DNA of 64,000 nucleotides from a candidate division WWE3 bacterium GW2011_GWC2_41_23 (lineage in GTDB: Bacteria; Patescibacteriota; WWE3; UBA101185; UBA10185), in NCBI GenBank assembly GCA_000996895.1, contig LCBB01000001.1, forward strand, positions 2,542 to 66,541. Reading direction: 5' to 3'. The stretch's first letter is position 1; every line of letters begins with the position of its first letter. The notes beneath the pieces are model-generated. The model had not been told where the DNA came from. It searched no databases and worked only from the letters and a program-made list of their open reading frames with translations. The translations under genes and the position numbers were made by a program. This document shows positions 689-24,237 of this stretch, piece by piece.

Positions 689-745
689 CGGCTGAGCATC
701 TCGGTCTAGAACGCAACAAATTCTTTTATGTCTAAGGTACTGGTG
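689..745. repeat. Structured intergenic repeat, copy A
   Basis: ggctgaGCATCtcggtc (6-bp stem with two G-U pairs) followed by tagaacgcaacaaattcttttatgtctaagg. Confidence 0.55.
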
Positions 746-810
746 CATAGCCAGATGCTCATATAACACTGCTGTTGTAATGTCTAGGCATATATATTAG
801 AATTATATAT

Positions 811-1143
811 ATGACTATTTTAGAAATATGGTCTTTACAGAAAATATCGATGCAAGTGCTAAGTACAATATTTTTTCTTTTAATAATATTTTTTTCGTAT
901 CAGGTACACACAAAGAAAAGGGGAAAGGTATACACGGCGCTTTGGATATCAATAACATATGTATCATATCTACTCTTTCTCATAGTCCCGTCTATAGTAA
1001 TGCAAAGCATATTAACAGATCCACCGAAGATGTTGCCATTCAACCATTTATTGTTATTTATTCTTTTACTCACTCCTTTAGTTGTTATCTGGCTTATATA
1101 CTTTTTAATTAGATTATCGAAGAAGAAAGGTCAGCAAAATTAG
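811..1143 (+). CDS. Small hydrophobic membrane protein (3-4 predicted TM helices), unknown function
   Basis: 110-aa ORF made almost entirely of hydrophobic stretches. It sits upstream of the ABC transporter pair and could be a cognate small membrane or immunity-type subunit. No motif recognised. Confidence 0.3.
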   Translation: MTILEIWSLQKISMQVLSTIFFLLIIFFSYQVHTKKRGKVYTALWISITYVSYLLFLIVPSIVMQSILTDPPKMLPFNHLLLFILLLTPLVVIWLIYFLIRLSKKKGQQN

Positions 1144-1304
1144 AAGTTTTAAGTAAACCGATTGCGTTTAGACCTATTTTCAGTAGCATGTTTTTCAACT
1201 CCTTGATTCTGTTTGGAATTGCTGTTTCTTGTTTACATTAATAAGCTATAGATTTTGTTCGAATCTATCTTTTTCAAAGAGGGTTTTTTACATAGTGGTC
1301 ACTT

Positions 1305-1365
1305 GCGTGGCCATTCTGGCCGAGCATGTCGGCCTAGAACAATACTCTTCTCTAGGCTTCAAGTG
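1305..1365. repeat. Structured intergenic repeat, copy B
   Basis: ggccgaGCATGtcggcc (perfect 6-bp stem) followed by tagaacaatactcttctctaggct. The stem sequence differs from copies A and C while pairing is preserved. Confidence 0.6.
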
Positions 1366-1425
1366 AGACAGACGAAACAGTACAAGATAAAAAACTAAAA
1401 GTGGTAAGCATCGCCAATAAGGTTT

Positions 1426-2376
1426 TTGATGGTAGTTAGTCGAGATATGGATATTATAAAGGTTGAAAATTTAACTAAGGAATTTAATAGTTTCAAGGCA
1501 GTAGATAACATATCCTTTGATATAAAAGAGGGTGAGATATTCGGACTTCTTGGTCCAAATGGGGCGGGTAAGACAACTACAATTAGGATTTTAACCGGAA
1601 TTTTAAAGCCAACTAAGGGCAGTGTAAAAATAGATAAATATGATATTCAAAATAAACCTCTAGACGCAAAACAATTAATGGGAATTGTTCCAGAGACAGC
1701 AGATGCTTATCCAGACCTATCTGCTTATAAGAACCTATTTTTTATTGGGGAACTGTACGGATTACAAAGAGGAAACATAGTTAAAAAAGCAAATAAGCTT
1801 CTAGAATTATTTGAATTAAAAGAGAAAATACATAATAAAGTTAAAACATTTTCAAAAGGAATGCGTCAAAGGTTGGTTTTAGCAATGGCTTTAATGAATG
1901 AATCAAAAATACTTATTTTAGATGAGCCTACTAGTGGATTAGATGTGAAAAGTGCGAGATTAATAAAAACTTTAATTAAAAAATTTAATCAAGAGAGTAA
2001 AACCATTCTTCTAACTACTCATAATATTGAAGACGCTAATCAGCTTTGTGATAGGGTGGCAATTATGAATTACGGAAAAATTGTAGCTATTGATAGCCCA
2101 GAAAAACTTAAAGATGTAATTCAGAGTTTATCTTCGGTTGAAGTTTCCTTTGAAAAACCCACTGATATTAAAGATTTTAAATTTGTTGATATAACTAAAA
2201 CAGTAAAAGAAGGTGATAAAATAAAGTTTTATACTAAAAATCCGGAAGGAGTATTGTTTTCTTTAGTTGACTATGCTAAATCATCAGGTAATAAAATTAT
2301 ATCTTTAAATACCTTGAAACCAACTCTTGAAGATGTATTTGTAAAATTGACAGAAAATAAAAATGATAATTCTTGA
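1426..2376 (+). CDS. ABC transporter ATP-binding protein (ABC-2 / DrrA-like exporter type)
   Basis: Walker A GPNGAGKTT, ABC signature FSKGMRQR, Walker B ILILDEPTSGLD, H-loop TTHNIED. The real start may be the internal ATG at 1447 (MDIIKVENL). Confidence 0.85.
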   Translation: MMVVSRDMDIIKVENLTKEFNSFKAVDNISFDIKEGEIFGLLGPNGAGKTTTIRILTGILKPTKGSVKIDKYDIQNKPLDAKQLMGIVPETADAYPDLSAYKNLFFIGELYGLQRGNIVKKANKLLELFELKEKIHNKVKTFSKGMRQRLVLAMALMNESKILILDEPTSGLDVKSARLIKTLIKKFNQESKTILLTTHNIEDANQLCDRVAIMNYGKIVAIDSPEKLKDVIQSLSSVEVSFEKPTDIKDFKFVDITKTVKEGDKIKFYTKNPEGVLFSLVDYAKSSGNKIISLNTLKPTLEDVFVKLTENKNDNS

Positions 2377-2995
2377 ACAACTAAAACGTTCGTGGGCAAT
2401 TACAAAAAAGAATCTTACGGTATCTTTTTTAAGAGGCCCTGTTATTGTATTTGGTATAGTAATGCCTGCTTTTTTATTTGTTTCTTTTTCTTTAAAAAGA
2501 CAAATATCTATTGAATCATTAATTCCTGGTCTTTTGGGGATGAGCCTTTTTTTCACAGTTTCGTCAATTACGCCAGGAATAATGCCTTGGGAAACTAAGA
2601 TGAAAACCTTAGAAAGGATAATCTCGTCTCCAGTAAAGTTGTGGGCAATCATTTTAGGAGATGTGCTTTCTTCTTTTATATATGGCATTTTAATTACAAT
2701 ACCTATATTTTTTGTAAGTTCTTTGTTTTTAGGAAAGTTAATTATTAATATTCCGATATTTTTAGCTACAATATTGGCCGCTTTTTGTTTCTCCTCCTTG
2801 GGAGAGCTTATTTCCTCAATACCTACCGATAACCCTTCAAATGCAATGATGTTGTCAACTTTAATAAAATTTCCATTAATTTTTATAAGTGGAATTTTTA
2901 TTCCCCTCACTGAAATGGGGAGTTTAAGAATTGTTTCTTTTTTCTCCCCCCCCAACCTACTACACAGATTTATTAAGAGGGTACATAGAAAATAA
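2363..2995 (+). CDS. ABC-2 type transporter permease
   Basis: 210-aa ORF with about 6 hydrophobic helices. It overlaps the stop of the upstream ABC ATPase by 14 nt, the usual ATPase-permease operon layout. Confidence 0.6.
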   Translation: MIILEQLKRSWAITKKNLTVSFLRGPVIVFGIVMPAFLFVSFSLKRQISIESLIPGLLGMSLFFTVSSITPGIMPWETKMKTLERIISSPVKLWAIILGDVLSSFIYGILITIPIFFVSSLFLGKLIINIPIFLATILAAFCFSSLGELISSIPTDNPSNAMMLSTLIKFPLIFISGIFIPLTEMGSLRIVSFFSPPNLLHRFIKRVHRK

Positions 2996-3225
2996 GAGTT
3001 ATTTTAACGCAACAACAAATCTTTTAGTACTTCTCATCTTTTCAGTTGCCTTTTTTTCATTAGCTATTATCCTACATAAAAGAAGTATGCCAAAAAGGTT
3101 CTAATCTTGATTTTTAATCTAAATCCACTTAATCAATTGCATTCCATTTTGGCTGGGTACAAGGGATGAAGTTCTAACATTTTGTGAACACTTGCGTGTG
3201 TCTGCTACATTTCAAACGCAATATT

Positions 3226-3708
3226 CTAACTGGGAGAAAATTCTAAAAAATCTTTTAGGATTGTGTTCTGCCTTCCCCCACACTTGTCGTTTATTTCAGC
3301 TTGAGAGTGCTTCTCATCTCCATATGCAACTATTTCTTTAACTTCAGTTGTAGAGCAAGGGTGCTCACCTTTATTTCCGTAGTAAAATTTCTTCCCTACT
3401 TCAATTTCCTGATAGCGTGTTATTCCAGAATCTAGGGGCGTTTCTATATCACTTCTACCATCTTTAATTATGGTCGTACCGTCGGGACCTACCCTAATGC
3501 CGTATATATTATCGGATACCGTCCTAAAAAGAACTCGTGTGTAAACTACGGAGCCTGGAGATTTGGTGGACATGCCTAAAAGTCTTCCTATCTCAAATTT
3601 ATCGCCCGCTCTATTTGTTTCATTTGCAAGTCTTCCCCCTCCAATATCTACCGGACCACGATGCTCCTCTGCTTCAAAAGATTCGTTTGGGTTTAATGTT
3701 TTGTTCAT
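3226..3708 (-). CDS. Hypothetical protein (160 aa, soluble, Gly/Asp-rich)
   Basis: Uninterrupted 160-aa ORF with no recognisable motif. It lies immediately outside the att-like repeat at 3741. Confidence 0.35.
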   Translation of the reverse strand: MNKTLNPNESFEAEEHRGPVDIGGGRLANETNRAGDKFEIGRLLGMSTKSPGSVVYTRVLFRTVSDNIYGIRVGPDGTTIIKDGRSDIETPLDSGITRYQEIEVGKKFYYGNKGEHPCSTTEVKEIVAYGDEKHSQAEINDKCGGRQNTILKDFLEFSPS

Positions 3709-3740
3709 TATTAAAACTATAACATCAAAATACTATAAAT

Positions 3741-3776
3741 ACCTCTTGGCTGGCCATTAGGGTCCAAGTTCGAACT
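3741..3776. repeat. att-like direct repeat of the tRNA-Gln 3' flank
   Basis: An exact 12-mer, cctcttggctgg, is found here and at 12341-12352 (the tRNA-Gln 3' terminus plus flank). Here it is followed by tagggtccaagttcgaac, which resembles the tRNA T-arm sequence tagggattcgaac, and is in the same orientation. Confidence 0.35.
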
Positions 3777-3889
3777 GTTGTTATGATAATAATAGGTTAA
3801 GAGCTACATAGCAGAAGTCTGGCTTAGGAAGTGCTGAAGCTTCTTCTACATTTGGTTCGTTAGGGAACTTTTCTGGACTCATTATATAA

Positions 3890-4684
3890 TTAGTCTAAAA
3901 AGGTGAAGGATTTTGCAATTTCTTCAGTGATATTTCTTAAAATCTTCTCATCTTCAGCTGGGATTTGTTCTGGGAAAGAATAGAGAGATAAGTATATGGC
4001 CATATCTCTATTTTCCCACTCATCTCCTAAATAATAGATTACCCCATAACCAACGTAAGGGACGCCTGTATACTGCAACTCTGCTTTCATGATTTTATAT
4101 ACTCCGCCTTCTACATCGGATCGTGTTACACCCGATTGCATGGGGCTAAACTCACCCTTCAACTGACTACGGGATATCTCTATATTTACTGGTTGGACGT
4201 ATTTATATTCAAGTGGTTCTCTTTGAATCCAAATAGTTCCATTAATGGTTCCACTATCCCTCAAGTAAAGTTCTTTTGGATACTTAAAACTAATATTTCT
4301 TACCTCATCGTAAGCATAGTCAAATTTTGTCTCATATAACACCCACGTGCTTACATCCATATTTATATCTTTTACAGCCGTCTTTGTACTTTGTGTTTCC
4401 TTTTGTACATTTGGAGCATTAATTAACTCATTTGAAACTTCATATATATTTTCCATGCTAGTATCTTTGTTGGCATTACTAATATTTGAGGCGTTTCTAC
4501 TTATGGAATCGGTTATAACCTTCTGGGAATTGGTTACAAATTTTTGATAAAGAATACCCAAGATAAAGCCAATAAATGGAAGTGTTATTAGAAGAATCAA
4601 TGCTAAAGTTTTAGACAAGCGAGTAACAGTAGTAAAAGGATTTGGTTTTGGAGTAATTGTTGTAGACTGATTGGTATCTTCCAT
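3890..4684 (-). CDS. N-terminally membrane-anchored extracytoplasmic protein, unknown function
   Basis: 264-aa ORF. A single hydrophobic helix (LALILLITLPFIGFILGILY) follows about 25 N-terminal residues. The rest is hydrophilic and Asn/Ser-rich. Confidence 0.45.
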   Translation of the reverse strand: MEDTNQSTTITPKPNPFTTVTRLSKTLALILLITLPFIGFILGILYQKFVTNSQKVITDSISRNASNISNANKDTSMENIYEVSNELINAPNVQKETQSTKTAVKDINMDVSTWVLYETKFDYAYDEVRNISFKYPKELYLRDSGTINGTIWIQREPLEYKYVQPVNIEISRSQLKGEFSPMQSGVTRSDVEGGVYKIMKAELQYTGVPYVGYGVIYYLGDEWENRDMAIYLSLYSFPEQIPAEDEKILRNITEEIAKSFTFLD

Positions 4685-4764
4685 ATAAGTTAAGCTTAGC
4701 TAAATAATTCATTGGCGTCAATGTGTTGATATGACAACAAAAACCTTGGCTGTCCGCGTGGGAG

Positions 4765-5202
4765 TTAGTTGGAACTTTTAACCTTTAAAAACTGATCCAT
4801 CAATTGAATATCCGCTAAATCTTTTTCACGGCCTAATGCTTTTTTAAACCCACGAAGAGTAAGTAAGTTAACGTAAGAATGGCCATCAATAATATCCGCG
4901 TTTTTTATTTGATTTTCCACTGCACATATTTTGGGATTAGCAAAATGAGAACCAAACCCTAATAAAGTTATATTACCAATCTGTATGGTTTCAAATCTTT
5001 CGCTTCTAACAGGATACATATTTTTGTACTTATTCCATATTTCTGGAAGAACTAATATATCTATGTCGTGTGGTTCTCTTAGATTTCTTACTGCTAATGG
5101 ACCTGACCCTGTAATTACGTATTCACCAATATTTAATCCTATTTGATCAAATTCATTTAATAGTGTGGATATGCTCACATAGCTAGTATAACGTAGTTCC
5201 AA
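4765..5202 (-). CDS. Minimal nucleotidyltransferase (MNT / pol-beta superfamily) domain protein
   Basis: Motif ITGSGPLAVRNLREPHDIDILV fits the GS...DxD signature of pol-beta-type nucleotidyltransferases (antitoxin-type MNT). Length is 145 aa. Confidence 0.45.
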   Translation of the reverse strand: MELRYTSYVSISTLLNEFDQIGLNIGEYVITGSGPLAVRNLREPHDIDILVLPEIWNKYKNMYPVRSERFETIQIGNITLLGFGSHFANPKICAVENQIKNADIIDGHSYVNLLTLRGFKKALGREKDLADIQLMDQFLKVKSSN

Positions 5203-5235
5203 AGCTTGGGTAGTACTGCAGATTTAAATGTAACA

Positions 5236-5290
5236 ATCTGACTGAGCATGTCAGTCTAGAACAATTACGTTCTCCAGGCTATTTGGCTGG
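5236..5290. repeat. Structured intergenic repeat, copy C
   Basis: gactgaGCATGtcagtc (perfect 6-bp stem, GCATG loop) followed by tagaacaattacgttctccaggct. It belongs to the same family as copies at 689-745 and 1305-1365. Confidence 0.6.
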
Positions 5291-5317
5291 CGGTATTGTA
5301 CACGATTTGAATCAGAA

Positions 5318-5749
5318 TCACCCCTTTTCACTAAATGGTTTATAGGGAATGTAGGATCTAATACTCAGGCCGTATTTTTGTATTAAGTTCTTATCCAAAA
5401 ACTTACTCTTCATGTATATGTCTCTAATGTTCTGCATAAGAATTTTCTGTTTATTACCTATGCTTGTCTGATCTGGAAATTTTTTTTCATCAGTAATATT
5501 ATGAACAAGATCGTTTCTATTGCTACTTAGTTCGTTAAGTAGTGTTGCTTCTGATTTACTGATCTCTTCTTTTAATAGAAGAGTCAAGATTGCTGAGCTA
5601 AAAGTGTCACGTCCCGTGTGTTTTCTTACAATACCTTCAACTATGAATGCATGAACGAGCACATTTCGTAATTGGCTACTTCGTTTACCTGTTAGTATTT
5701 CTTCTTTAAACTCGTTTTTAATCCACCTGGGATTACTCATATTTGTCAT
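5318..5749 (-). CDS. HEPN-like protein (two RNxLVH motifs)
   Basis: 143-aa ORF with two copies of the R-x4-H pattern, LRNVLVHAF and NRNDLVHNI, which resemble the RNxLxH(xY) motif of HEPN/HepT RNases. It is adjacent to the MNT-like gene. Confidence 0.35.
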   Translation of the reverse strand: MTNMSNPRWIKNEFKEEILTGKRSSQLRNVLVHAFIVEGIVRKHTGRDTFSSAILTLLLKEEISKSEATLLNELSSNRNDLVHNITDEKKFPDQTSIGNKQKILMQNIRDIYMKSKFLDKNLIQKYGLSIRSYIPYKPFSEKG

Positions 5750-5783
5750 GTGATTTATTTACAAAGCAAGAATATCAAGTTAT

Positions 5784-5999
5784 TTAATGAAACCCACCTG
5801 GGTCAGGGTCATACTCTCTGTCATCGTTAAGAACCTTCACTTCTACCTTGTTTCCCGCATCATCCGTAAAGGTTTCTGTTGAATAATACGGCATGTCACT
5901 GTCACTGCTACTCGAGTTTGGTGGGGAGGAAAGTGTACACCCTGTCACAAAAACACTAATAAATGGTAGGAGCGCTATTAATAGTATTCTACTAATCAT
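5784..5999 (-). CDS. Small lipoprotein (71 aa)
   Basis: Signal peptide MISRILLIALLPFISVFVTGC with a lipobox-like VTGC, followed by a Ser/Asp-rich mature part. The ORF track extends the start to 6086, but the extension is hydrophobic with no signal logic, so the start at the Met at 5999 is preferred. Confidence 0.4.
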   Translation of the reverse strand: MISRILLIALLPFISVFVTGCTLSSPPNSSSSDSDMPYYSTETFTDDAGNKVEVKVLNDDREYDPDPGGFH

Positions 6000-6113
6000 T
6001 TCTAGCTCAACTATACCTTCAAAAAAACTTAAAGTACAATTGTAAACGGGTAATTTGAGTAAGAACTTGGCGGTCTTGTACGCCATTTGAAATGTTTTAC
6101 CCTGGTAAACTTA

Positions 6114-8498
6114 TCAAGCGATATGGTTATCTAATATGTCTTGGACAAAATCAATGCCCTTACTAATTGTGTTGTAATTTGTATTTGCCAAACTCCAAGC
6201 ATGAGAATCTTGCTGAGAAATATCTAAAATACTTCTTAATTTGTCGGTGTTTTCATCAGGTAGCCCTACTGAATTTGCCTTGTCGAATAGTCCTTTTATG
6301 CCTAAATTCTTTTGAACATTCTTCGCAATATTAAATGGAATAGAGTTGTACATCAAATATTCTATACACACAGATTCCATCGCCTTTCTTAACTCACCTC
6401 CTGCTGTCTCTAAAGATGTTATATCACCAAGTAAAAGCATATCTTTACAAACTTTGAGGTGTCTTTCAGTATCTCTATAGCCTATTAATTCAATTTTGGG
6501 TCCCTTTTCATCGTTATTATAAAAGTGGTATATTGCTGGTTTGGTGCTATAAAACCTTCCTTTTAACTTTAGATAGAATTCTTTGGAATGTGTCATGATA
6601 ATTAATTGTTTACGTTGCTGAATTTCAACAAGTACTTCCAATAGTGACTGGGAATGATTGTCATCCATTGATTGAACGGGGTCGTCTAGAATTACACATT
6701 CCCACGTCGCATTCCTATCTACTCTTTGAGGAAAATAGATACTTAACGCTAGGCTATTTGTGTGTGCTTCGCTAAAGAAAGTAACTGGATTTACTTGCTT
6801 TCCATATGCTTCTGCTTTTAGACTAGCCTGTCTTCTATTCTCTTTAGTCTCTATTCCGAAAAACTGTACTTTATCGCTTGGGTTAAGTTTGTGGTAATAA
6901 TCCTTAATTTCGTCGGCATGTAACGCAAGTAGTGTTTCAATCTCCTTTTTTTCAAACTCCTCAAGATCTGTTTGTATCAGGTCTATTTCTAATAGTAGTT
7001 TGTGCCGTGTAATAAATTCAGCAGAGTTGTTTAAAAACTTCGATACCTTTTCGATATAAAACCACTTTTTAAATGTGTTCTGATCAACGTCTTTCTCAAG
7101 AGATATAGCTTTTCCTATGCCCTCTTTAAGAGATTCCCAAGCGCTATTTATATCTTCAAAATGTTGTTTTATAGAATTTACAAGGTTATCAATATTTATC
7201 TCAAGCACTACATCGGTATTTTTATGAAAATATTTTTGTTCAACGTACACGCGATAAGATTCCCAGCTTTCCTTTAATGTTTGGGCTAGTCGCGCGGTAT
7301 CTGTATCTACTTTAGTTTGAAGTTGTTGAGTTGCTATAGCTAGATCTTCCAACCCAGTTTCCTTGAGTTTAATTGCAACTGCAGCCAGTTCAGTTTCATT
7401 AGGTAAGTACGTCTTACACGAAATTTCAAAATTACTTAGCCACAAACTTATTTCATCAGTCTGTGTTTTTAGGCGTGAGTTTGCAATTTGTATTTCCTCG
7501 TTATCTTTCAATAACTTGCTAATCGAATTTTTTCTTTCCTCGGTATACGTTTCTTCTAAACAAAATGGGCATACTGGGGATTTTCCTAAAACATATCCGA
7601 GGTTTAGGAATTCTAATTCGCTTTTCCCGTAGGATCCGTACGAAACCTTTATTGCTTCACTTGCGAACCCCTCAAAGCCTGTTTTAATATACTCTGCGAA
7701 TTCATCTATTTTAAACCTGTCGGGGTAGCTTATAGATGTTACTCTATTACCTAATTCTGAATTTAATAGAGCTTTAATTTTAGATGATATGGCCGCCGAA
7801 ATTGCTTCGATGTCATGGTTACTAATTGATAAGATCTTCGATAGTTCTAAGTGAAACTCCGCTACATTTAAACTAGACAAACTTTGTGTAAGAGAAATAA
7901 ATTCTGGATACTCAGTTAGCTCGGTAATAAGGGACTCGTATTTTCTTAGGGAGCTTTTGTATTCGTCAGTTTTCTTGTTATTACGAAGAGCCATCAAATC
8001 ATCTCTTGATGTTGATAGTGTATCTTGACCCAAAATACAAGATATCTGTTCCCATCTATCTTTTGGCTCAGCATCAACAAGAGCCTTAATTTCAGTCTGA
8101 GCTAGCATGGGACGAAAATAACTTTCTAGGTTTAAAGCGAGCGAACTAAAATCAGCGACCTCCAAATCGTTTATGTACAGCTTATATTCTCTCGAGATCA
8201 ATTCTTTTTTTAGCTTATACTCTATTCCTCGAATTGTGCCTGTTAACTCTACGAACGGGTTTTCAGATTCTGAGTAGAAGACGTTCTTTAAGTACTCTTC
8301 GTACTGGTATTCTGATTTACAGCGAGAGAGACGTTGCCTAGATATTTGATCAAAAAAAAGCCACTCTAAAGCTTCTGTTAAGCTACTCTTCCCAGAGCCG
8401 TTTTGTCCGTAAACAATAGTTATGTTGTCGTCAAATAATATTGTCTCCTCGGTGTTAAAACCCCGAAAGCCTTTGATAGTTATTTTTTTAAGTTTCAT
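6114..8498 (-). CDS. Rad50/SbcC/RloC-like ABC ATPase with coiled-coil and CPFC zinc-hook motif, plus a C-terminal HEPN-like domain (RDTERH)
   Basis: 794 aa. N-terminal MKLKKITIKGFRGFN...GQNGSGKSS (Walker A, RecF/SMC-head type). A long predicted coiled-coil centre carries CPFC (the Rad50/RloC hook CPxC) at about residue 305. Walker B/D-loop CVILDDPVQSMD and H-loop IIMTHS lie near residue 600. A roughly 170-aa C-terminal domain contains YRDTERHL (Rx4H). The architecture matches RloC/PrrC-like anticodon-nuclease-type or abortive-infection ATPases. Confidence 0.55.
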   Translation of the reverse strand: MKLKKITIKGFRGFNTEETILFDDNITIVYGQNGSGKSSLTEALEWLFFDQISRQRLSRCKSEYQYEEYLKNVFYSESENPFVELTGTIRGIEYKLKKELISREYKLYINDLEVADFSSLALNLESYFRPMLAQTEIKALVDAEPKDRWEQISCILGQDTLSTSRDDLMALRNNKKTDEYKSSLRKYESLITELTEYPEFISLTQSLSSLNVAEFHLELSKILSISNHDIEAISAAISSKIKALLNSELGNRVTSISYPDRFKIDEFAEYIKTGFEGFASEAIKVSYGSYGKSELEFLNLGYVLGKSPVCPFCLEETYTEERKNSISKLLKDNEEIQIANSRLKTQTDEISLWLSNFEISCKTYLPNETELAAVAIKLKETGLEDLAIATQQLQTKVDTDTARLAQTLKESWESYRVYVEQKYFHKNTDVVLEINIDNLVNSIKQHFEDINSAWESLKEGIGKAISLEKDVDQNTFKKWFYIEKVSKFLNNSAEFITRHKLLLEIDLIQTDLEEFEKKEIETLLALHADEIKDYYHKLNPSDKVQFFGIETKENRRQASLKAEAYGKQVNPVTFFSEAHTNSLALSIYFPQRVDRNATWECVILDDPVQSMDDNHSQSLLEVLVEIQQRKQLIIMTHSKEFYLKLKGRFYSTKPAIYHFYNNDEKGPKIELIGYRDTERHLKVCKDMLLLGDITSLETAGGELRKAMESVCIEYLMYNSIPFNIAKNVQKNLGIKGLFDKANSVGLPDENTDKLRSILDISQQDSHAWSLANTNYNTISKGIDFVQDILDNHIA

Positions 8499-8643
8499 TT
8501 TTTATTTTCTCCAAAAGCTTATCAAAACTTATGGACAGGGACTCATATTTTCGTGTTTTTATGTACTCTTTTAATAGTTCTTTTTGAACTTCATTTAAGG
8601 TCTCGTAAAATTTTTCTAAGGGTGTACTTATATTAGTTGTCAT
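8488..8643 (-). CDS. Small hypothetical protein (51 aa) translationally coupled to the ABC ATPase
   Basis: Internal Met start MTTNISTPLEKFYETLNEVQKELLKEYIKTRKYESLSISFDKLLEKIKNET. It overlaps the ATPase start by 11 nt and is charged and helical. The longer 98-aa version in the ORF track has an implausible N-terminus. Confidence 0.35.
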   Translation of the reverse strand: MTTNISTPLEKFYETLNEVQKELLKEYIKTRKYESLSISFDKLLEKIKNET

Positions 8644-8674
8644 AACGGGATTATAGCAGTTTTTTGGAGATGCG

Positions 8675-9445
8675 TTGTATACTCCACTTATGCTGAAATT
8701 GATTGATATCGTAGTGTTGCGCAGTGTAAATCCAATTAAAATTGTAAATCGTCCTAGTGTTAAAACATTGGAGTTTCTTAACAATCTTATTAGGACAAAA
8801 GGTATTGAGGAATTTATTGAAAACGCAAGGCGTCAATATAAGATAAGTGACGCTGGATTAGACATCCGTAAGCTAGTGGGGGTTAACTTGTATGATCTCG
8901 GTGATACAAATATTAATGCTTTTAAAATTATTGCGGACGAGTATGTTCGTAGTACTGGCATGCCTTCTGAACAAGCTCTTGAAATATTTTTACTGGTTAT
9001 GTTCAACGCTATAATAGATCTTAAGTATTTTAAAAGCGCACCTTCTGACCCCAATGAGTTTGTATTTGGGCGTAGAAAAATAGCCGATAAAATGTGGGAG
9101 TATTCGCACGAAGTAGGTGCAATTATAGTCCCTTTTGACGTGTCTAAGACCAAGCTAAAAAAATGGATAGATACAAACTGGAAGCTTATAAGTGAGGATA
9201 TGATAAACAATTTTACTTCAAACCCATTTATTCTAGGTATCCATGAAAATTTGATATACGAGGAAGAGATAAGAGAATTAAAAGAAGAGAAAGGCAAATC
9301 CTTTGCTCAGGTTACTGAAATATTACAAGGTAAATACCCCAAAGATAAGTGGAAGCTTTCCAGAGTTAAAAAAGTCTACTACGACGCACGCCAAAGGGAA
9401 ACCTTACAGAAGTTGAAACAACAACGCGATCTTCAGACACCTTGA
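8675..9445 (+). CDS. Hypothetical protein (256 aa), divergent from the ATPase operon
   Basis: Long ORF, Lys/Glu-rich at the C-terminus, no recognised motif. The start is uncertain (possibly the Met at 8690). Confidence 0.45.
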   Translation: MYTPLMLKLIDIVVLRSVNPIKIVNRPSVKTLEFLNNLIRTKGIEEFIENARRQYKISDAGLDIRKLVGVNLYDLGDTNINAFKIIADEYVRSTGMPSEQALEIFLLVMFNAIIDLKYFKSAPSDPNEFVFGRRKIADKMWEYSHEVGAIIVPFDVSKTKLKKWIDTNWKLISEDMINNFTSNPFILGIHENLIYEEEIRELKEEKGKSFAQVTEILQGKYPKDKWKLSRVKKVYYDARQRETLQKLKQQRDLQTP

Positions 9446-9647
9446 ATAGTTCCTGTTAGGTGACTAGTTTATAAATCTTATACATTCAGCTAAGTATGCT
9501 GAGTGGCAACAATCTAGACAAACTAACAGAATACCTTCGTAGACTTGGGTACACCAGTCTAAGCGTGAGCGAAACAATTTCAGCCTTTACGGCAATTACT
9601 CCTGTTTTAGCTTCAATATCCTTACGTATTTATCAGGAGAAAATGAA

Positions 9648-10730
9648 ATGATAGATACTCTAAGGTTTAAAATATTGGGCAGCAAAGAAATATATAACGC
9701 GATAAAAAATAAAGGAATAGAAAGAGTTATGTGGGATTATGCAGAAGATAAGCAAAAACATGTATCGGTTTATCAATTAATCCTAGTACCCAGTAAGGAA
9801 TGCAAAATATACATTCAAGCACAGGATTACGAGCACTTTTTTGTAGAGTTTTCCTTACCTAAAGTTTTGTTTGGTACAAATGTGTTCATGATCTACCCCG
9901 AACAGGTTACTGCCACTCTAATTGAAGTTTATAGGATAATTCGTAATTTTTTGAAGCTACCGATAGATTCAATAGATAATTGGATAGTGCAAAGGGTTGA
10001 TTATAGCTATGTTTGGAAATTTGATAATGCTATGCAAGCTCTTTGGGTACTCGAGAACATGGCAAAGTTTCAATACCCAAGGAAAAATGTAACTATCAGG
10101 GACACGTCTGTAACTATTAATGGCACGACCGAAAGAATGATCTTCTACTTAAAGCATGAAGAATATGTAGATAAGACTTACAAGAAATTAGCAAAAACAC
10201 AGCCAAGGATTGCTGAGTTTCTTTTTGAGGAGTCCAAAAACACATTGAGGTTTGAAATAGTACACATGAAGGCTAAATTAAATAGCATTTTTGGGAGTGA
10301 AGTTACTTACAAGGAAGTTTTGGGTGAGAAATATATCATTAGCACCTTGAATGAAGCACTGAAGACTTTTTGTAATTCTAATACACTGATCTCAATGACG
10401 TGGCACGAGGCAGTAGAACTTGTTTATTCAAAATTATCGGGTCGTGAGGCCTTTAATTTATACGGCTTTCTGTGCATGTATTACCCATACGACATGTCTC
10501 AGAGGGAATATAACAGAGCGTTTTTAAAGCAAAACATTAGTCCATCAACCATATATAAGTATAAAGAAAAATTCAAGGAGATTGGTGGTGGAATACTATT
10601 TAGTAATCCTGAGTTTAAGGCTATAGACTTGAATATTCCTAATATTCGTGTAATTAATACGGAAGATCGTGTCGCGGATATAGCGAAAGCGATCCGCGAC
10701 CTCCGTATTGATGATTTGCAATCTGTTTAA
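9648..10730 (+). CDS. Hypothetical protein (360 aa), possible replication or mobilisation protein of the island
   Basis: AGGAGA SD before the ATG. Long ORF immediately upstream of the serine recombinase. No motif confirmed. Confidence 0.45.
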   Translation: MIDTLRFKILGSKEIYNAIKNKGIERVMWDYAEDKQKHVSVYQLILVPSKECKIYIQAQDYEHFFVEFSLPKVLFGTNVFMIYPEQVTATLIEVYRIIRNFLKLPIDSIDNWIVQRVDYSYVWKFDNAMQALWVLENMAKFQYPRKNVTIRDTSVTINGTTERMIFYLKHEEYVDKTYKKLAKTQPRIAEFLFEESKNTLRFEIVHMKAKLNSIFGSEVTYKEVLGEKYIISTLNEALKTFCNSNTLISMTWHEAVELVYSKLSGREAFNLYGFLCMYYPYDMSQREYNRAFLKQNISPSTIYKYKEKFKEIGGGILFSNPEFKAIDLNIPNIRVINTEDRVADIAKAIRDLRIDDLQSV

Positions 10731-10773
10731 CTGCGTACTCTAATAGCAGTTAAACATTTCTATATAGAAATAT

Positions 10774-12408
10774 ATGAATGAATTAAGAAATAAGAATTGC
10801 ATACTTTTCTGTAGAGTCTCTTCAAGAGAGCAAGAAGAAACTGGCTACTCCCTTCCTGCGCAACAGTCTTATCTCCAAGCCTACACGAATAGAAGTCGTT
10901 TAAATGTGATTAGGGCTTTTAACATTTCTGAAAGTGCTAGTGGTAGAAAAGCACGTGTGGAGTTTAATCAGATGTTAGATTACGTTAGGAAACAAAACAT
11001 CAACGTAATTATCTGCGAGAAGGTGGATAGGCTGACAAGGAATCAAAAAGATGCCTTGACGATAGATGATTGGGTTAAAGAAGATGTTTTTCACGAGGTA
11101 CATTTTGTTAAAAATTCATTTATTCTAAATAAGGAGTCAAAGGCTAGTGATAAGTTCGTTTGGAATATTCACGTATCTCAAGCTCAGTTTAATATAGAAA
11201 ACCTCTCAGAAGAGGTTAAGAAGGGTCAAAACGAGAAGATTTCAGAGGGTTGGTATCCATCTCAAGCACCCGTTGGGTACAGGTCAGGTCTGAACGGAAA
11301 AAAGAAGATTATAGAGCTAGATCCAAACACAGCACCGTTAATGGAGAGGGTACTAGTTGAGTATTCTACAGGTGTTCATTCCGTGTTATCTATTTGTAGA
11401 TTTGCTCAAAAAATCGGATTAAGAAATCTCAAAGGTAATTTTATAGCTAAAACTTCCATGCACAGGATTTTACAAAACCCCTTTTATTACGGAATGTTTA
11501 CATGGAATAAAGCCAGTTATGTTGGTAATCACCCAGCCATTATTGATAAAGATACATTCGATAAAATTCAAAAGTATTTGAAGCGAAAGACTCCTCTTGT
11601 TTATAGACAACTTAATGCTCTTTATAGTGGTATTTTGCATTGTAAGGATTGTGGAGGATTAATTACTTGGGAAAGTCATAAAGGTCATCAGTATGGTTAT
11701 TGTAAGGGCTGTAGAGGTAAACGCGGAGTTAAAGAACCTGAAATTAATAAACCAATTCAAAAGTTATTTGGTAACGCTAAGATACATAAAAAGCAGGTCG
11801 CTGATGCAGTTCGTGAAGGTGTTATTTCTTATGTGAAGAACTCTTACGGTATTGTTGGTAAATCTAATGCACAGATTGAAAAGGATATTGAAAAATATAC
11901 TAATAGGTTGAGTAAGCTTTATGATGATCGTGCTGACGGGCTGTTAACTCCTGAAATGTACTTCAACAAATTTGCAGAATATAACAACACACTCACTGAT
12001 TTGAGAATTCAGTTAAAAGAAAATAGCCAGCATAAGGAGTTTTTTGATATTGAAGGTTTTAAGCAATTCTTTGAAGGTTCTCAGAATTTGGAACTGTATT
12101 ATGAGAAAGCTACTAAAGACGAAAAAAGAAAACTACTTAAATTCGCTTTTGAAGATTTAGCTTACGCTAATAATTCTTTGGGATATAACTTTTCTAAGGC
12201 TTATTTATTACTTTATAAGGCTGTTGAGATTACTAATAGTTCGGAAATCAAAAATATTAAGGAATTTCAGGAATATATTTCCGAACCTGACGAATTAGTT
12301 GCTAGTAAAACAAAAAATGACTCTTTTCGAGCTATTCGTTCCTCTTGGCTGGGGGATAGGGATTCGAACCCCAATAGGCGGGACCAAAACCCGCAGTCCT
12401 ACCGTTAG
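10774..12408 (+). CDS. Large serine recombinase (resolvase/invertase N-domain, recombinase domain and zinc ribbon)
   Basis: N-terminal CILFCRVSSREQ with the catalytic Ser in RVSS. Central recombinase domain, Cys cluster CKDCGG...HQYGYCKGC (zinc ribbon), then a coiled-coil-like tail. The last ~21 codons are read through the antisense of tRNA-Gln. Confidence 0.85.
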   Translation: MNELRNKNCILFCRVSSREQEETGYSLPAQQSYLQAYTNRSRLNVIRAFNISESASGRKARVEFNQMLDYVRKQNINVIICEKVDRLTRNQKDALTIDDWVKEDVFHEVHFVKNSFILNKESKASDKFVWNIHVSQAQFNIENLSEEVKKGQNEKISEGWYPSQAPVGYRSGLNGKKKIIELDPNTAPLMERVLVEYSTGVHSVLSICRFAQKIGLRNLKGNFIAKTSMHRILQNPFYYGMFTWNKASYVGNHPAIIDKDTFDKIQKYLKRKTPLVYRQLNALYSGILHCKDCGGLITWESHKGHQYGYCKGCRGKRGVKEPEINKPIQKLFGNAKIHKKQVADAVREGVISYVKNSYGIVGKSNAQIEKDIEKYTNRLSKLYDDRADGLLTPEMYFNKFAEYNNTLTDLRIQLKENSQHKEFFDIEGFKQFFEGSQNLELYYEKATKDEKRKLLKFAFEDLAYANNSLGYNFSKAYLLLYKAVEITNSSEIKNIKEFQEYISEPDELVASKTKNDSFRAIRSSWLGDRDSNPNRRDQNPQSYR

Positions 12409-12419
12409 ACGATCCCCCA
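12346..12419 (-). tRNA. tRNA-Gln (anticodon UUG)
   Basis: Reverse complement TGGGGGATCGTCTAACGGTAGGACTGCGGGTTTTGGTCCCGCCTATTGGGGTTCGAATCCCTATCCCCCAGCCA. U1-A72 pair, G73 discriminator, anticodon loop TTTTGGT giving UUG, T-loop TTCGAAT, CCA encoded. Confidence 0.8.
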
Positions 12420-12513
12420 ATGACAAATTATTATAGCATCTAAAAAACTTGTATCCTCAGAGAAATCTCAAATTCTTACCTCTTCCTAACCCTCCCCCAA
12501 ACTCCAACCCCCC

Positions 12514-13329
12514 CTAATCCTCCATCATCTGCCTCAACATCCCCATCTTCGCATCCATAGCCTCTTCTCCGCACGATACGATTCCTTTTTCTTTTACAAA
12601 ATTCTTGAATAAACTAAATTTTCCTTCCGGGATTTTAGGGTTTAAAGCAATGTCGGCATCGTCCAGGTTTTCTACGGCCATTCTATTTAAAAGCATTTGG
12701 TAAGAAAGTCTAAAAACCTCACGTGTGGTAAGTTTCATCTTGCCTTCTATGGCTGCGGTCAGGGGAAATATGTTTCCGTACAAGTTAACTCCTATAACAA
12801 GGTCCGCTCCCATCTGATACGCCATCTTCGCTGGCACGGGAGTTGAATTTCCTCCGTCCACCAGCTTTTTTCCGTCAATGGTTACCGGTGCCAGAACCAG
12901 GGGTATTGAAATACTTGCCCTTATTGCCGTAGCCAAATTGCCCTTACCTAAATAAACAGTTTCTCCGGTTAAAATATCGGTTGCCACGGCCTTAAAAGGT
13001 ATTTTTAGCTGTTCGATTTTCACGCCTTTTAGAAATACCTCTAAAAACTGCAGGAATTTGTTGCCTTTTAACAAACCTAAATCAGCCATCGGGTCCGACA
13101 AAACTCTGAAAAGATCCTGGTATTTGATTCCCGCGATAATCTCCTCTATTTTTGAAACTTCTCCGTAATAGGCATATAAACCCCCGACAAGAGCTCCGAT
13201 ACTTGAACCTGTAATGTAATCAACGGGAATATTATTTTTCTCGAGGGATTTTAAAACTCCGATATGCGCAAGGCCTCTCCAGCCTCCGCTCCCCAAAGCC
13301 AATCCGATCTTTACTTTTTTTCCGCTCAT
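12514..13329 (-). CDS. Patatin-like phospholipase
   Basis: Oxyanion-hole GSGGWRG and nucleophile elbow GSSIG (GxSxG), plus DGG near the C-terminal half (catalytic Asp). Confidence 0.8.
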   Translation of the reverse strand: MSGKKVKIGLALGSGGWRGLAHIGVLKSLEKNNIPVDYITGSSIGALVGGLYAYYGEVSKIEEIIAGIKYQDLFRVLSDPMADLGLLKGNKFLQFLEVFLKGVKIEQLKIPFKAVATDILTGETVYLGKGNLATAIRASISIPLVLAPVTIDGKKLVDGGNSTPVPAKMAYQMGADLVIGVNLYGNIFPLTAAIEGKMKLTTREVFRLSYQMLLNRMAVENLDDADIALNPKIPEGKFSLFKNFVKEKGIVSCGEEAMDAKMGMLRQMMED

Positions 13330-13775
13330 TTTATTTCAACAAAAGTTTCGTCAATTAAATTTCCGAATCCGTCTTCCATTGTAATCCTATATTCCCCCGG
13401 ATTTAAGTTTGTAATTGCTCCAAAGATTTCGTAGTAAACATAAATCTCCTCTTCAGTGAATTCATTGTCCCTTAAAATCACCGTGATATTAGGATCAACT
13501 ACTAAAAATGGAAAGGACGGTTGAAATTTTAACTTACGCCTCATCTGAGCGGTTTCAAAATTTCCTTTTAGGTCGTAAAACTTTGTCTCAAGTAAAATGG
13601 AATCTTCCTGCGCCGTTACTTTTAGCGGAAGTTGTTTTGCATCATCTATAACCTGACTTTTTATCTCGTAATTAAATTTTGGAGAAGACACCTTCACTAA
13701 AAGTATAAAACCGGTAGCGAGGGCGAAAACCAGCGCCAGTATAAGGACGATTTTTCTTTTTGTCTGAAACGTCAT
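13326..13775 (-). CDS. Membrane-anchored protein (149 aa), co-translated with the patatin-like lipase
   Basis: N-terminal TM helix ILALVFALATGFILLV. Its stop overlaps the patatin start in an ATGA arrangement. Confidence 0.5.
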   Translation of the reverse strand: MTFQTKRKIVLILALVFALATGFILLVKVSSPKFNYEIKSQVIDDAKQLPLKVTAQEDSILLETKFYDLKGNFETAQMRRKLKFQPSFPFLVVDPNITVILRDNEFTEEEIYVYYEIFGAITNLNPGEYRITMEDGFGNLIDETFVEIK

Positions 13776-13781
13776 GACCCT

Positions 13782-14513
13782 ATGTTACCATATACCGGTA
13801 TGGTATTACCTCAAAAACACACCGGTACTGTGGTAGAAAAGAAGGCTGTTTCTCCTTTAGTTACGTGGTTAAGACTCAAAATTGAGGGAGTTTCCGACTT
13901 TTCTTTTATCCCCGGCCAGTTCATAAATCTTGAAGTAGGTGACGGAATCTACCGTTCTTACTCTATTTGCAACGATACTGTAGGCGGGGGCTTTGTAGAA
14001 CTTGCCGCCATCACCGGACGCCCGGGTTTGGGGGCTAACCTTATCAATTCTTTGAAAATAGACTCGTCTGTGGGCTTTGTAGGCCCTTCCGGACGCTATT
14101 CTTATAGAAAAGGCGGCCGAAAGAACGTAGTTTTTGTGGCTACCTCTACCGGCATTGCCCCCTTTATTCCTATGATAGGTCAGGCTTTAGAGGATCCTTT
14201 TGTAGAGTCTATTACACTGGTATTCGGCGTACGCGACCAGGAAGACGTCTTTTTCGAGGACAAATTCAAGAAGTTTTTAGAGATGTCACCCAAATTTAGC
14301 TACTTTATATGTTTGTCGGGAGTTGCCGACGGACTTAAACCGCCCTATTTTGCAAACCGAGTAACCTTTTGTTTACCCGATTTTGTTAAGGATGCTACTG
14401 ATTTTTACTTATGCGGAAACACCGCGATGATCCGCGACTGTTCTGATATTATTAGTAAAGCGGGGTTAGAAGATTTTGCTATTTATACCGAGGCTTTTAA
14501 CCCGAATTTGTAA
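13782..14513 (+). CDS. FNR-like FAD/NAD(P)-binding oxidoreductase (ferredoxin-NADP reductase family)
   Basis: RSYSI (RxYS FAD-binding motif) and VFVATSTGIAPF (NAD(P)-binding GxGxxP-like), with the typical two-domain length of 243 aa. Confidence 0.65.
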   Translation: MLPYTGMVLPQKHTGTVVEKKAVSPLVTWLRLKIEGVSDFSFIPGQFINLEVGDGIYRSYSICNDTVGGGFVELAAITGRPGLGANLINSLKIDSSVGFVGPSGRYSYRKGGRKNVVFVATSTGIAPFIPMIGQALEDPFVESITLVFGVRDQEDVFFEDKFKKFLEMSPKFSYFICLSGVADGLKPPYFANRVTFCLPDFVKDATDFYLCGNTAMIRDCSDIISKAGLEDFAIYTEAFNPNL

Positions 14514-14515
14514 GT

Positions 14516-15358
14516 ATGGGCGGAAAAGAAGGATACACAAAAGAAGAATATTTTACTGCATCGGACGACATTGCTGATTCGATAAAAGCTGAGTATTCTT
14601 CGGTGTCTCCCGAGGAGCAGGAGTTTGTTAATGTCATAGCTCAGGGGATTAAAGACTACGTTGTCCAGACCTACGGCGAACACATCTCAAAGGATATGAA
14701 GGAGATGCTCGAGACTGCAAATAAAAGAATAGTAATGGTCGATAACGAAGGTTTTAAGAATCTATCTGAAGATTGGAAACCCGAAAGTGCGTTGCCGGCA
14801 CCTGAAGGAGCCGCATATTTCTCAAAAATCGGAAACCTGGTGATTATGCGCGATATGATAGAACACTCTAAAGTAATCTGGGAACAAGGTAAAGAAATGT
14901 TCGAATCCCTTCCCGAGGACCAAAAAAGAATGGTACTCCCGTACATACGTTTTTCGCTAGTTACACAAGCGCTTATTCACGAACTTGTACACTCTTGTCA
15001 GGAAGATACGGGCGAACACCGCAATAAGAACGTATACCGAAGGATGGCCCTGGATGAGTGCGGTGCTTCATGCCTAACCGATAAGATTATGAAAGAGAGA
15101 TACCCAAAGGGAAACTTTCTTGAAAGTAAGGATAGCAAAATCAGGATAGATACGTTCAATTATTTGCTTGGAAAGTACGGGGATGAAGTTTACGATGTTT
15201 TTTTCAACAATGTTCCTGAAGTAGCCGTTGATAAAGCAAGACACGAAGAACTTCAGAAGAATATATACTCGGAGTTTGGAACTAAAAAACTTGTACAGGT
15301 AGGTATACTTGACGATGATAAAGCGGGTGTCTACGATCACATGAGTGAGAGTTGGTAG
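14516..15358 (+). CDS. Hypothetical protein with HExxH motif (HELVH)
   Basis: 280-aa hydrophilic ORF. HELVHSCQED suggests a possible metal-binding or metallopeptidase-like site. Otherwise unrecognised. Confidence 0.45.
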   Translation: MGGKEGYTKEEYFTASDDIADSIKAEYSSVSPEEQEFVNVIAQGIKDYVVQTYGEHISKDMKEMLETANKRIVMVDNEGFKNLSEDWKPESALPAPEGAAYFSKIGNLVIMRDMIEHSKVIWEQGKEMFESLPEDQKRMVLPYIRFSLVTQALIHELVHSCQEDTGEHRNKNVYRRMALDECGASCLTDKIMKERYPKGNFLESKDSKIRIDTFNYLLGKYGDEVYDVFFNNVPEVAVDKARHEELQKNIYSEFGTKKLVQVGILDDDKAGVYDHMSESW

Positions 15359-15361
15359 TAA

Positions 15362-15400
15362 AAAAATCCCCGTCTATCTTCGCTTTTGGCAAAGTTAAAC
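15362..15400 (-). terminator. Candidate intrinsic terminator of the copper operon (minus strand)
   Basis: Minus-strand hairpin ccccgt...acgggg followed by ATTTTTTTAC. It lies between convergent genes. Confidence 0.4.
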
Positions 15401-15416
15401 GGGGTGTAAAGCAGGG

Positions 15417-15647
15417 TTACTTAATCATCAGCAGATACACGGAAACAATCACTCCGAGGAAGGAAGCAATGGCAGATTTAGTGTATTTTGCCAAGGCGAA
15501 CCCGACCGCGGAAATAAAAAGGGAGCCGCCGAGAAAAATAATTGGTGTGAAGTGGTGTCTTCCGAATATAACCAGGGTTATTAACGCCCAGCAGGTAAAA
15601 TTTAGGCCCAACATTCCAAAGGTTGCCGCTATCGATTTTTGCTCCAT
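15417..15647 (-). CDS. Small two-TM membrane protein (76 aa) at the end of the cop operon
   Basis: Two hydrophobic helices. Preferred over the overlapping plus-strand 110-aa ORF because of operon context and hydrophobicity pattern. Confidence 0.4.
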   Translation of the reverse strand: MEQKSIAATFGMLGLNFTCWALITLVIFGRHHFTPIIFLGGSLFISAVGFALAKYTKSAIASFLGVIVSVYLLMIK

Positions 15648-15721
15648 TTCATTCTCCTTTTCTAGCGCTGATTTTGTCCTATAGTATACAAATGGGGGTA
15701 AAAAGTCAACAGTACCGCTAA

Positions 15722-17947: not shown

Positions 17948-18010
17948 AATTTCATTTTATGAGCAGAAGAAGTATCTTCTGCGAAGAAAAGAAGATGTTT
18001 ATTAACATCT

Positions 18011-19336: not shown

Positions 19337-19369
19337 TTTCTAAAATAGTTTCCGGAATTTTATACATGT

Positions 19370-19639: not shown

Positions 19640-19643
19640 ATGG

Positions 19644-19658
19644 TCCCCCACTGGGGGA
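19644..19658. promoter_or_regulatory. Candidate CsoR operator
   Basis: Perfect GC-rich palindrome TCCCCCA-c-TGGGGGA immediately upstream of the csoR start. It resembles described CsoR operators with a CCCCCAGTGGGG core. Confidence 0.55.
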
Positions 19659-19689
19659 TACATTAAAAAGTAGCACATATAGAAGGAGG

Positions 19690-19735: not shown

Positions 19736-19739
19736 GGGT

Positions 19740-24161: not shown

Positions 24162-24237
<76 letters not shown>

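Follow-up and report, generated by a model that had tools for sequence, protein, structure and literature searches.

The locus analysed here raises the question of what a family of short intergenic repeats does between the genes of a low-GC island in an uncultivated groundwater bacterium of candidate division WWE3 (Katanobacteria). The window under study, a stretch of 64,000 nt, holds three copies of the repeat, c1, c2 and c3, at 689-745, 1305-1365 and 5236-5290 (coordinates are window positions unless a locus label is given; L001 is a longer contig of the same genome). An earlier reading made from the letters alone, hereafter the sequence-only reading, had seen in each copy a hairpin whose stem changes by compensation, as expected under selection on secondary structure. 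From comparison with related contigs, we propose instead that the repeats are attachment-site (att) half-sites at the joints of modules integrated in tandem downstream of a tRNA-Gln gene, in an array that would have been built by a large serine recombinase, and we give this explanation a probability of roughly three in four. It rests on breakpoints at a common core, on the shuffling of the arms that flank this core, on a recombinase gene that ends on it and on the conserved ends of the elements concerned.

The repeats and their core

The copies were located with the pattern GAGCATSTCRGYCTAGAAC, and the result was compared with 100 shuffles. The window gives three matches, all on the plus strand (694-712, 1322-1340 and 5244-5262), for a chance expectation of 0.03, and no shuffle out of 100 produced three. 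The anatomy given by the sequence-only reading holds for each of them: a 6-bp stem (ggctga/tcggtc in c1, ggccga/tcggcc in c2 and gactga/tcagtc in c3), a GCAT[G/C] loop followed by TAGAAC, and a further inverted repeat, either AGAAC...GTTCT or CTAGA...TCTAG, the stem of c1 being completely paired only through two G.T wobbles. Likewise, all three copies do lie between genes, c3 being antisense to both of its neighbours, and they are indeed specific to the island, a profile built from 30 family members having matched only c1, c2 and c3 in the 64 kb (E = 3e-14, 7e-11 and 2e-6, respectively). A fourth copy of the same type, c0, lies 49 nt to the left of the window start (L001:6252).

A repeat search tied the ‘weaker relatives’ that had also been reported to the 3' end of the tRNA. 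These relatives are real, at 3747-3775 and 4747-4775, and two more were found at 3150-3178 and 5284-5312, but what the reported pair shares with the repeats is a TGGCTG core and a distal GAAC-type motif, without the hairpin. TGGCTG is the complement of CAGCCA, the 3' terminus of tRNA-Gln, and its five plus-strand occurrences in the island (3150, 3747, 4747, 5284 and 12346) are all intergenic sites. Read in the plus orientation, every joint has the same layout, i.e. a variable left arm, TGGCTG and a right arm of one of three types: the tRNA type (GGGGATAGGGATTCGAAC, 18 nt), the c-type, which is the repeat of the sequence-only reading (AGCATGTCGGTCTAGAAC, 18 nt), and the tRNA-like w-type, always 23 nt long (GCCATTAGGGTCCAAGTTCGAAC at 3747, for example). 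In most cases, TTCTCYAGG and a leader, AAATGAGACAAATGAGACAGTATAAAA, come after the c-type arm. The w-type pattern has three matches in the island and none in the other 51 kb, for 0.013 in shuffles.

The spacing of the arms is informative as well. A TTCGAAC-like motif stands at core+16 in w-type arms versus core+11 in the tRNA, hence 5 bp further out. In serine integrases, the distal zinc-ribbon motif is 5 bp further from the centre in attP than in attB half-sites (PMC3783163), and the offset between w-type and tRNA arms, as aligned here, appears to match this rule. The c-type arm has the host-type spacing (core+12+TAGAAC), with CTAGAAC where the tRNA has TTCGAAC. If the central dinucleotide is the CT within TGGCTG, as we infer, the TTCGAG in the recombinase-end arm of the window is symmetric to the TTCGAA of the w-type; c2 has CC in this place. 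The dyad of the c-type palindrome was also considered as the crossover centre and discarded, since tRNA, c-type and w-type arms share no dinucleotide beyond the right edge of TGGCTG; the exchange would have to take place within the core.

Breakpoints and exchange of arms

Contigs that share one side of a joint diverge at the core. L068 and L089 match at every position of 10,795 nt through TGGCTG (100% identity); then L068 continues with tandem c-type units and L089 with tRNA-Gln, followed by the host flank of the window organism. Rightward of the core, L071 and L082 agree at 100% over 1,500 nt; leftward, they have nothing in common. The outer flank in L001 matches that of L068/L089 at 92% over 571 nt, ending in ...GATACCAGCTAGATT-TGGCTG, and the sequences are wholly different beyond the core. 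Because this shared flank ends there, the outer boundary of the island is placed at L001:3961-3981, 2.3 kb to the left of the window. Between the two conserved flanks (the outer flank on one side, tRNA-Gln and its host flank on the other) lie 14.7 kb in this genome and, in L089, 10.5 kb of unrelated sequence.

Recurring left arms are the recombinase end and arms of the GTGGTCAC, TTATGACAA and TTCTCCAGG types (the recurring sequences being the recombinase end, GTGGTCACTTGCGTGCCCATTC, TTGTTATGACAAnAAAAAC and TTCTCCAGGyTATT), and each of them is joined to at least two of the tRNA, c-type and w-type right arms. The tail that precedes c2, GTGGTCACTTGCGTGGCCATTC, is found elsewhere joined to tRNA-Gln (L005:17640 and L081:5232) or to c-type arms (L077:5007), and an arm near-identical to that of the 3747 site has other neighbours at L092:9375. 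These comparisons show strand exchange at the core, with arms shuffled between contigs, and they lend strong support to a serine recombinase binding site, one of the functions that the sequence-only reading had put forward. The cores of c1, c2 and c3 are themselves mutated (table 1), whereas the family core is nearly invariant, which suggests that these three joints are no longer active.

The recombinase gene ends on the core

The original integration target is tRNA-Gln. In the window, the last 21 codons of the recombinase gene cross the core and then run antisense into the tRNA gene. Close relatives of the recombinase (53-94% identity) were compared together with their contigs, and in every one of them the gene reads ...ATTCGTnCnTCT-TGGCTG. 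What is fused to this end varies: tRNA-Gln in the window, L007, L010, L011/L012 and L100; another tRNA in L014; a w-type arm in L009; and a complete c-type unit in L005/L006 (with a 78% identical recombinase in L005), L013 (55%) and L099 (57%). In L005, L013 and L099, the c-type arm directly abuts the recombinase stop codon.

The opposite end is conserved as well. Five elements that carry a rolling-circle Rep together with the recombinase share TGGCTG-RCRGTWYTGTAYRCKATTTGAAH at their left end (window 5284, L005 5259, L007 3115, L009 5357 and L013 5531), and their left flanks are all unrelated. Such elements measure 6.0-8.5 kb.

Several side observations concern these elements. The C-terminus of the recombinase changes with the sequence to which the gene is joined, the antisense tRNA-Gln contributing 14 extra residues (544 amino acids; window 12346-12408), while c-type-joined recombinases have 530-532 amino acids and ends of the WLSTRV-stop or WLSMSI-stop type (L005 11573-11593, L013 11579-11599 and L099 4446-4466). 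A TGGCTG followed by a perfect hairpin, GGAAGACGTAGTCTTCC, occurs between Rep and recombinase, approximately 120 nt upstream of the recombinase start, in L009 (9884), L013 (9884), L099 (2757) and L100 (1627). It is absent in the window, where the Rep-recombinase spacer is only 43 nt, and could be a Rep origin or an autoregulatory site. No terminal overlap indicative of circularity was found in L099, and scans of viral contigs with the c-type pattern, the left arm of the Rep element and the recombinase protein gave no matches.

More distant large serine recombinases follow a similar rule. Among 50 of them (31-41% identity, on Patescibacteria genome contigs L015-L064), most end on an antisense tRNA 3' end (Gln, Asn, Leu, Ser or Glu), and no c-type site was detected at any of these distant recombinases in the genome contigs. 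For others, the end falls on the 3' half of a tRNA, with divergence setting in at the anticodon loop, which suggests that other recombinase subfamilies may use other crossover positions.

Pairing in the stem

If the repeats are recombination sites, what becomes of the stem? The pattern used to scan metagenomes imposed nothing on the 3' stem arm or on any upstream sequence and did not include the core. The scan returned 38 matches on 34 contigs, nearly all directly preceded by TGGCT though the pattern did not require it, for a family consensus of TGGCTGAGCAt-nnnGgTCTAGAAC-N7/8-TTCTCcAGG-..AAATGAGACAAATGAGACAGTATAAAA. Further copies therefore exist, and the likeness of the three window copies is not due to chance. 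In this family, the left arm is constant and the positions of the 3' arm vary (GTCGGT, CTAGGA, TTAGGG, AACGGT, GCGGAT, ACCGAT and GGCTGT).

In the alignment of 41 distinct cores, 78.9% of the cells of the proposed helix are paired versus 79.0% once shuffled (381 of 500 shuffles reaching at least the observed value), the covariation score is 0.138 versus 0.136, and a double-sided change is seen in one cell only. Pairing fails at three of the six pairs in 11, 14 and 18 of the 41 sequences, and all six are kept in approximately one-third of the distinct cores. The larger alignment is thus devoid of structural covariation, and selection on secondary structure through compensatory changes, as claimed by the sequence-only reading, is not borne out. 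The ‘compensations’ of the window amount to four transitions, all of them where the consensus stem has its two G.T pairs; they are weaker evidence than they appear, because any transition in a G.T pair yields a Watson-Crick pair.

These results bear directly on the possibility that selection maintains the stem of a cis-acting structured RNA, or of a hairpin in single-stranded DNA, with a role in attenuation, in processing or stability at gene ends, or as a small RNA. All three window stems do pair, c1 resembling a G.U intermediate between c2 and c3, and c2 and c3 fold better than shuffles (z = -3.25 and -2.28, respectively); c1 does not (z = -0.18), and the best fold of c2 is a different hairpin. 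A structured RNA is also difficult to reconcile with the lack of covariation over 41 distinct relatives, only about one-third of which keep six pairs, with the antisense position of c3 relative to both flanking genes and with the occurrence of tandem units that lack the left arm. Moreover, Rfam at its gathering thresholds detected eight tRNAs in the window and no family at the repeats, and no terminator-like site was found between 600 and 1460, where the hairpins are followed by TAGAAC and no T-run. The 41-core pairing test largely refutes the structured RNA, which we regard as very improbable; neither a small RNA nor an attenuator is supported.

More specific candidates were rejected on their own grounds. 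Against a tRNA fragment or split tRNA, the hairpin loop lacks U33 and R37 on either strand; the sequence has no C box, as a C/D-box small RNA would require; an intrinsic terminator is not supported, the scans having found none at the units; and quasi-palindrome template switching, considered for c2 and c3, would convert the whole arm in a single event, which is not observed.

By alignment, the 5' stem arm is the nearly invariant core TGGCTG plus one base and not a covarying strand. The 3' arm would be part of a recombinase half-site, in which case the hairpin is a by-product of the window copies rather than a selected feature.

Modules of the array

Positions 1-12.4 kb of the window form a low-GC island (33-36% versus approx. 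40-43% in most of the remainder), whose right end is tRNA-Gln(TTG). With the part beyond the window start, the island is a 14.7-kb array of approximately nine modules of one or few genes (table 1). One open reading frame (ORF) per module is also the rule in L013 (1773, 2492, 3553, 4217 and 5531), L094 (2470, 3415, 4407 and 4972) and L009 (11576, 13121 and 14396). Module ORFs lie on both strands, and some units have the leader. A 3.45-kb module in L081, which has a c-type head and whose GTGGTCAC tail is fused to tRNA-Gln, encodes helix-turn-helix, ImmA-like and SEC-C proteins; the stretch common to L068 and L089 encodes an OLD-like ATPase, a type I restriction-modification system and a PD-(D/E)XK nuclease.

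Table 1. Sites, modules and genes of the array, from its outer end to tRNA-Gln.
Feature	Position	Strand	Description
w-like module head	L001:3976		radical-SAM, peptide and transglutaminase-like genes
c0, module head	L001:6252		methyltransferase
c-type site 1 (c1)	689-733	+	mutated core CGGCTG 689-694; arm AGCATCTCGGTCTAGAAC 695-712; tail, degenerate TTCT, 721-730; joint of the methyltransferase and orf110 modules, head of the latter at 689
Site 2, left arm (tail)	1295-1316	+	GTGGTCACTTGCGTGGCCATTC
c-type site 2 (c2)	1317-1394	+	mutated core TGGCCG 1317-1322; arm 1323-1340; TTCTCTAGG 1348-1356; heads the ABC-transporter module at 1317
c2, degenerate copy of the family leader	1361-1394	+	AAGTGAGACAGACGAAACAGTACAAGATAAAA
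w-type site	3150-3178	+	TGGCTG + 23-nt tRNA-like arm ending TTCTAAC; joint of the ABC and orf160 modules, head of the latter at 3150
w-type site	3747-3775	+	TGGCTG + GCCATTAGGGTCCAAGTTCGAAC; left flank resembles the recombinase gene end; heads the orf264 module at 3747
w-type site	4747-4775	+	TGGCTG + TCCGCGTGGGAGTTAGTTGGAAC; arm subtype also in L009, L072 and L073; heads the orf145 module at 4747
c-type site 3 (c3)	5239-5283	+	mutated core TGACTG 5239-5244; arm 5245-5262; tail GTTCTCCAGGCTATT 5269-5283; ‘empty’ 45-nt unit, head at 5239
Element left junction (attL)	5284-5312	+	TGGCTG + GCGGTATTGTACACGATTTGAAT; arm kept at the left end of five related elements; head (5284) of the Rep + recombinase element, then tRNA-Gln
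Autonomous 7.1-kb integrative element	5284-12351		Rep + recombinase + cargo
Element cargo	6114-8498 (SMC-like ATPase)	-	three minus-strand genes including the SMC-like ATPase; also orf256
Phage_CRI-type rolling-circle Rep	9648-10730		
Large serine recombinase (KKS03556.1)	10774-12408	+	Resolvase + Recombinase domains; 544 amino acids
tRNA-Gln(TTG)	12346-12419	-	3' CAGCCA complements core 12346-12351; right junction (attR)

Some modules are reduced to their ends. Such ‘empty’ modules of 45-109 nt, with a c-type head, a tail and the next TGGCTG and no ORF in between, are seen in L086 (11344-11453, minus strand), L072 (2907-3016) and the window (5239-5289). Those of the window and L086, with TGGCTG on both sides, would be expected if the unit were a miniature non-autonomous transposable element, akin to miniature inverted-repeat transposable elements (MITEs) or repetitive extragenic palindromic (REP) sequences, that duplicates or targets TGGCTG, and the many copies across metagenomes would fit with this. 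Such an element is scarcely compatible with other features of the family: there is no transposase and no terminal inverted repeat spanning the unit, all copies have a single orientation relative to the tRNA, those of the 64 kb are confined to the tRNA-Gln island and those elsewhere are tied to the TGGCTG core, which is also the end of the serine recombinase gene and of the tRNA. We consider it the least probable of the alternatives, and the miniature mobile element of the sequence-only reading is left without support.

Other units are multiplied. Tandem 55-nt c-type units (GAGCATGTCGGTCTAGTAC-CCACCCAC-TTCTCCAGG-TTCTAATTCCCGTATAAT) occur in L065 (approx. 10960-11080), L068 (60-160), L076 (1-110) and L005 (11573-11660). 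The conserved leader and these tandem units suggest an extra role in promoter activity or protein binding. One may go further and take the unit to be mainly a promoter or operator for the downstream cargo, its inverted repeats binding a dimeric regulator and its link to TGGCTG being secondary. The leader indeed contains two direct copies of the 10-nt AAATGAGACA, followed by TATAAAA and a purine-rich segment ahead of plus-strand ORFs, a GAAC-N6-8-GTTC dyad recurs, and tandem 55-nt units exist without the core. However, consensus scans of the plus strand of the unit found no sigma-70-like promoter, many c-type-headed modules carry minus-strand ORFs (L013 and L094), and the breakpoints at the core and the fusions with the recombinase end would be left unexplained. 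A promoter or operator as the main function is thus improbable, if less so than a structured RNA; it is compatible with the att-site explanation as an added function, not as a replacement for it.

Further observations on the island concern its gene content. Defence-type genes are frequent in the cargo of the tRNA-Gln modules of this and related contigs, namely an SMC/AAA_23 ATPase, AbiEii, HEPN AbiU2, KAP NTPase, SduA_C, an OLD-like nuclease and type I restriction-modification (window 6114-8498, L010 3440-4834, L007 7248-7853, L014 97-2256, L012 81-1241 and L068 423-8444). The outermost module (L001 3976-6250), with a radical-SAM/SPASM enzyme, a 43-amino-acid ORF and a transglutaminase-core protein, looks like a small cluster for a ribosomally synthesized and post-translationally modified peptide, and a second radical-SAM/SPASM gene stands just beyond the island boundary. 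In the ABC-transporter module, a run of approximately nine C at about 2946-2954 splits the ABC-2 permease frame into ORFs 2363-2995 and 2931-3104, which could reflect a frameshift, phase variation or an assembly error. From tRNA-Gln onwards, eight minus-strand tRNA genes (Gln, Val, Phe, Gly, two Leu, Lys and Arg) lie within 17 kb (12346-28993), all with an encoded CCA, as judged by ARAGORN versus Rfam ends.

Growth of the array

Since c-type modules have no recombinase of their own, their sites would be acted on in trans by the same recombinase family, and the array would have grown as modules integrated time after time at the tRNA-proximal joint or close to it. Two scenarios can be envisaged for the c-type. 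Its heads may be the leading arms of recombinase-less cassettes that insert beside the tRNA; or Rep + recombinase elements may use c-type sites as landing pads in place of the tRNA half-site that these sites mimic, which would explain the host-type spacing of the c-type and the three junctions between recombinase end and c-type by ordinary attP x attB chemistry.

Several points weigh against the att-site explanation. Neither a circular junction nor an empty attB (in the form GATACCAGCTAGATT-TGGCTG-GGGGATAGGG) was recovered, and no recombination was directly observed. Action in trans is an assumption, as no recombinase is present within the c-type-headed modules of L081 and L068/L089. The spacing of the c-type is attB-like and not attP-like, although it is carried by mobile DNA. 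In the tandem 55-nt arrays, the TGGC of the core is found in the first unit only, which plain attachment sites do not predict. As for the stem, c2 and c3 are perfect 6-bp palindromes, and four transitions falling exactly at the two wobble pairs are unexplained if pairing is irrelevant; besides, the scan fixed GAGCA and the last base of the stem, so that compensation at two of the six pairs was not recoverable.

A bolder extension would see in the array an integron-like cassette platform of Patescibacteria. Capture and reshuffling of single-gene cassettes of 0.5-2 kb, each with a 25-90-bp head site (c- or w-type) and a short tail, would take place at the tRNA-Gln terminus CAGCCA or its mimics, the enzyme being provided in trans by a 6-8.5-kb Rep + recombinase helper and the c-type head acting as a portable landing pad for array growth. 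We consider this extension less likely than not to be correct. If the one-gene modules are mobile cassettes, the system would be a serine-recombinase analogue of integrons and would offer genome engineering compact att sites that are multiplexed by nature.

An unsupported ‘covarying RNA hairpin’ is thereby replaced with a testable explanation in terms of DNA recombination, and a hypervariable island of an uncultivated WWE3 bacterium is given exact boundaries. The family is widespread in groundwater and other metagenomes (34 contigs from one scan), with recombinases that would target the last six bases of tRNA-Gln and whose gene ends on the crossover core. As its cargo includes defence genes (restriction-modification, OLD-family nuclease, AbiEii and SMC-like ATPase), gene flux in the reduced, symbiotic Patescibacteria may have this system as one of its main routes. 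No description of such a system in Patescibacteria was found in the literature searched.

Comparison with known systems

The staphylococcal cassette chromosome (SCC) elements, including SCCmec, offer one parallel: at rlmH (orfX), Ccr large serine recombinases act on the 3' end of a conserved gene, and repeats of the integration site separate the cassettes of composite arrays, in which pseudo-SCC units lacking a recombinase are included. Unlike in the island described here, the target of SCCmec is a protein-coding gene, the cassettes measure tens of kb and each repeat directly copies the target end, where the island has several distinct arm families.

With integron attC cassettes, the array appears to share one ORF and one site per unit, a single orientation of the sites and a hairpin-like imperfect palindrome. 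Unlike integrons, it is anchored at a tRNA, its ORFs lie in both orientations, and it has no attI and no R''/L''/L'/R' organisation. No GTTRRRY/RYYYAAC pair is present in the site sequence, and no IntI-type tyrosine recombinase was found, the serine type being the only recombinase Pfam in a scan of 12 island ORFs with 100 amino acids or more.

As in the serine integrases of LI, Bxb1 and phiC31 (PMC3783163), the common core is short and the distal motif is 5 bp closer to the centre in the host-type (tRNA) half-site than in the element-type (w-type) one; unlike in these systems, the P arm of attP lies inside the recombinase coding sequence, the target is a tRNA end and the c-type arm is host-spaced. 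As regards the target, PMC4383910 names tyrosine integrases, not serine recombinases, as the usual agents at tRNA genes.

Tandem accretion of integrative and conjugative elements (ICEs), integrative and mobilizable elements (IMEs) and cis-mobilizable elements (CIMEs) has been described, e.g. for the ICESt1/ICESt3 islands of Streptococcus (PMC5704250). Like these CIME islands, the present array has the 3' end of a conserved gene as its target and att-bounded modules in one orientation, only one of which keeps a recombinase, and recombinase-less modules retain both end sites. Unlike them, it involves a large serine and not a tyrosine recombinase, a Patescibacterium host and no conjugation genes, with modules of 0.05-2.3 kb, mostly of one gene, and at least four conserved arm families.

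The tycheposons of Prochlorococcus, 27 of 937 of which use serine recombinases (bioRxiv 10.1101/2020.12.28.424599), resemble the array in their integration at tRNA genes, in older elements being pushed outward, in partial-tRNA repeats between cargo and in replication genes. Their repeats are true partial tRNAs of approximately 40 nt, whereas only 6 nt of the tRNA are shared here and the c-type arm is not tRNA-like; one-gene modules, present here, are not described for tycheposons. Att repeats in accretion arrays are already well known, and what is new in the WWE3 island is a serine recombinase at six bases of a tRNA end, several arm families and very small one-gene modules.

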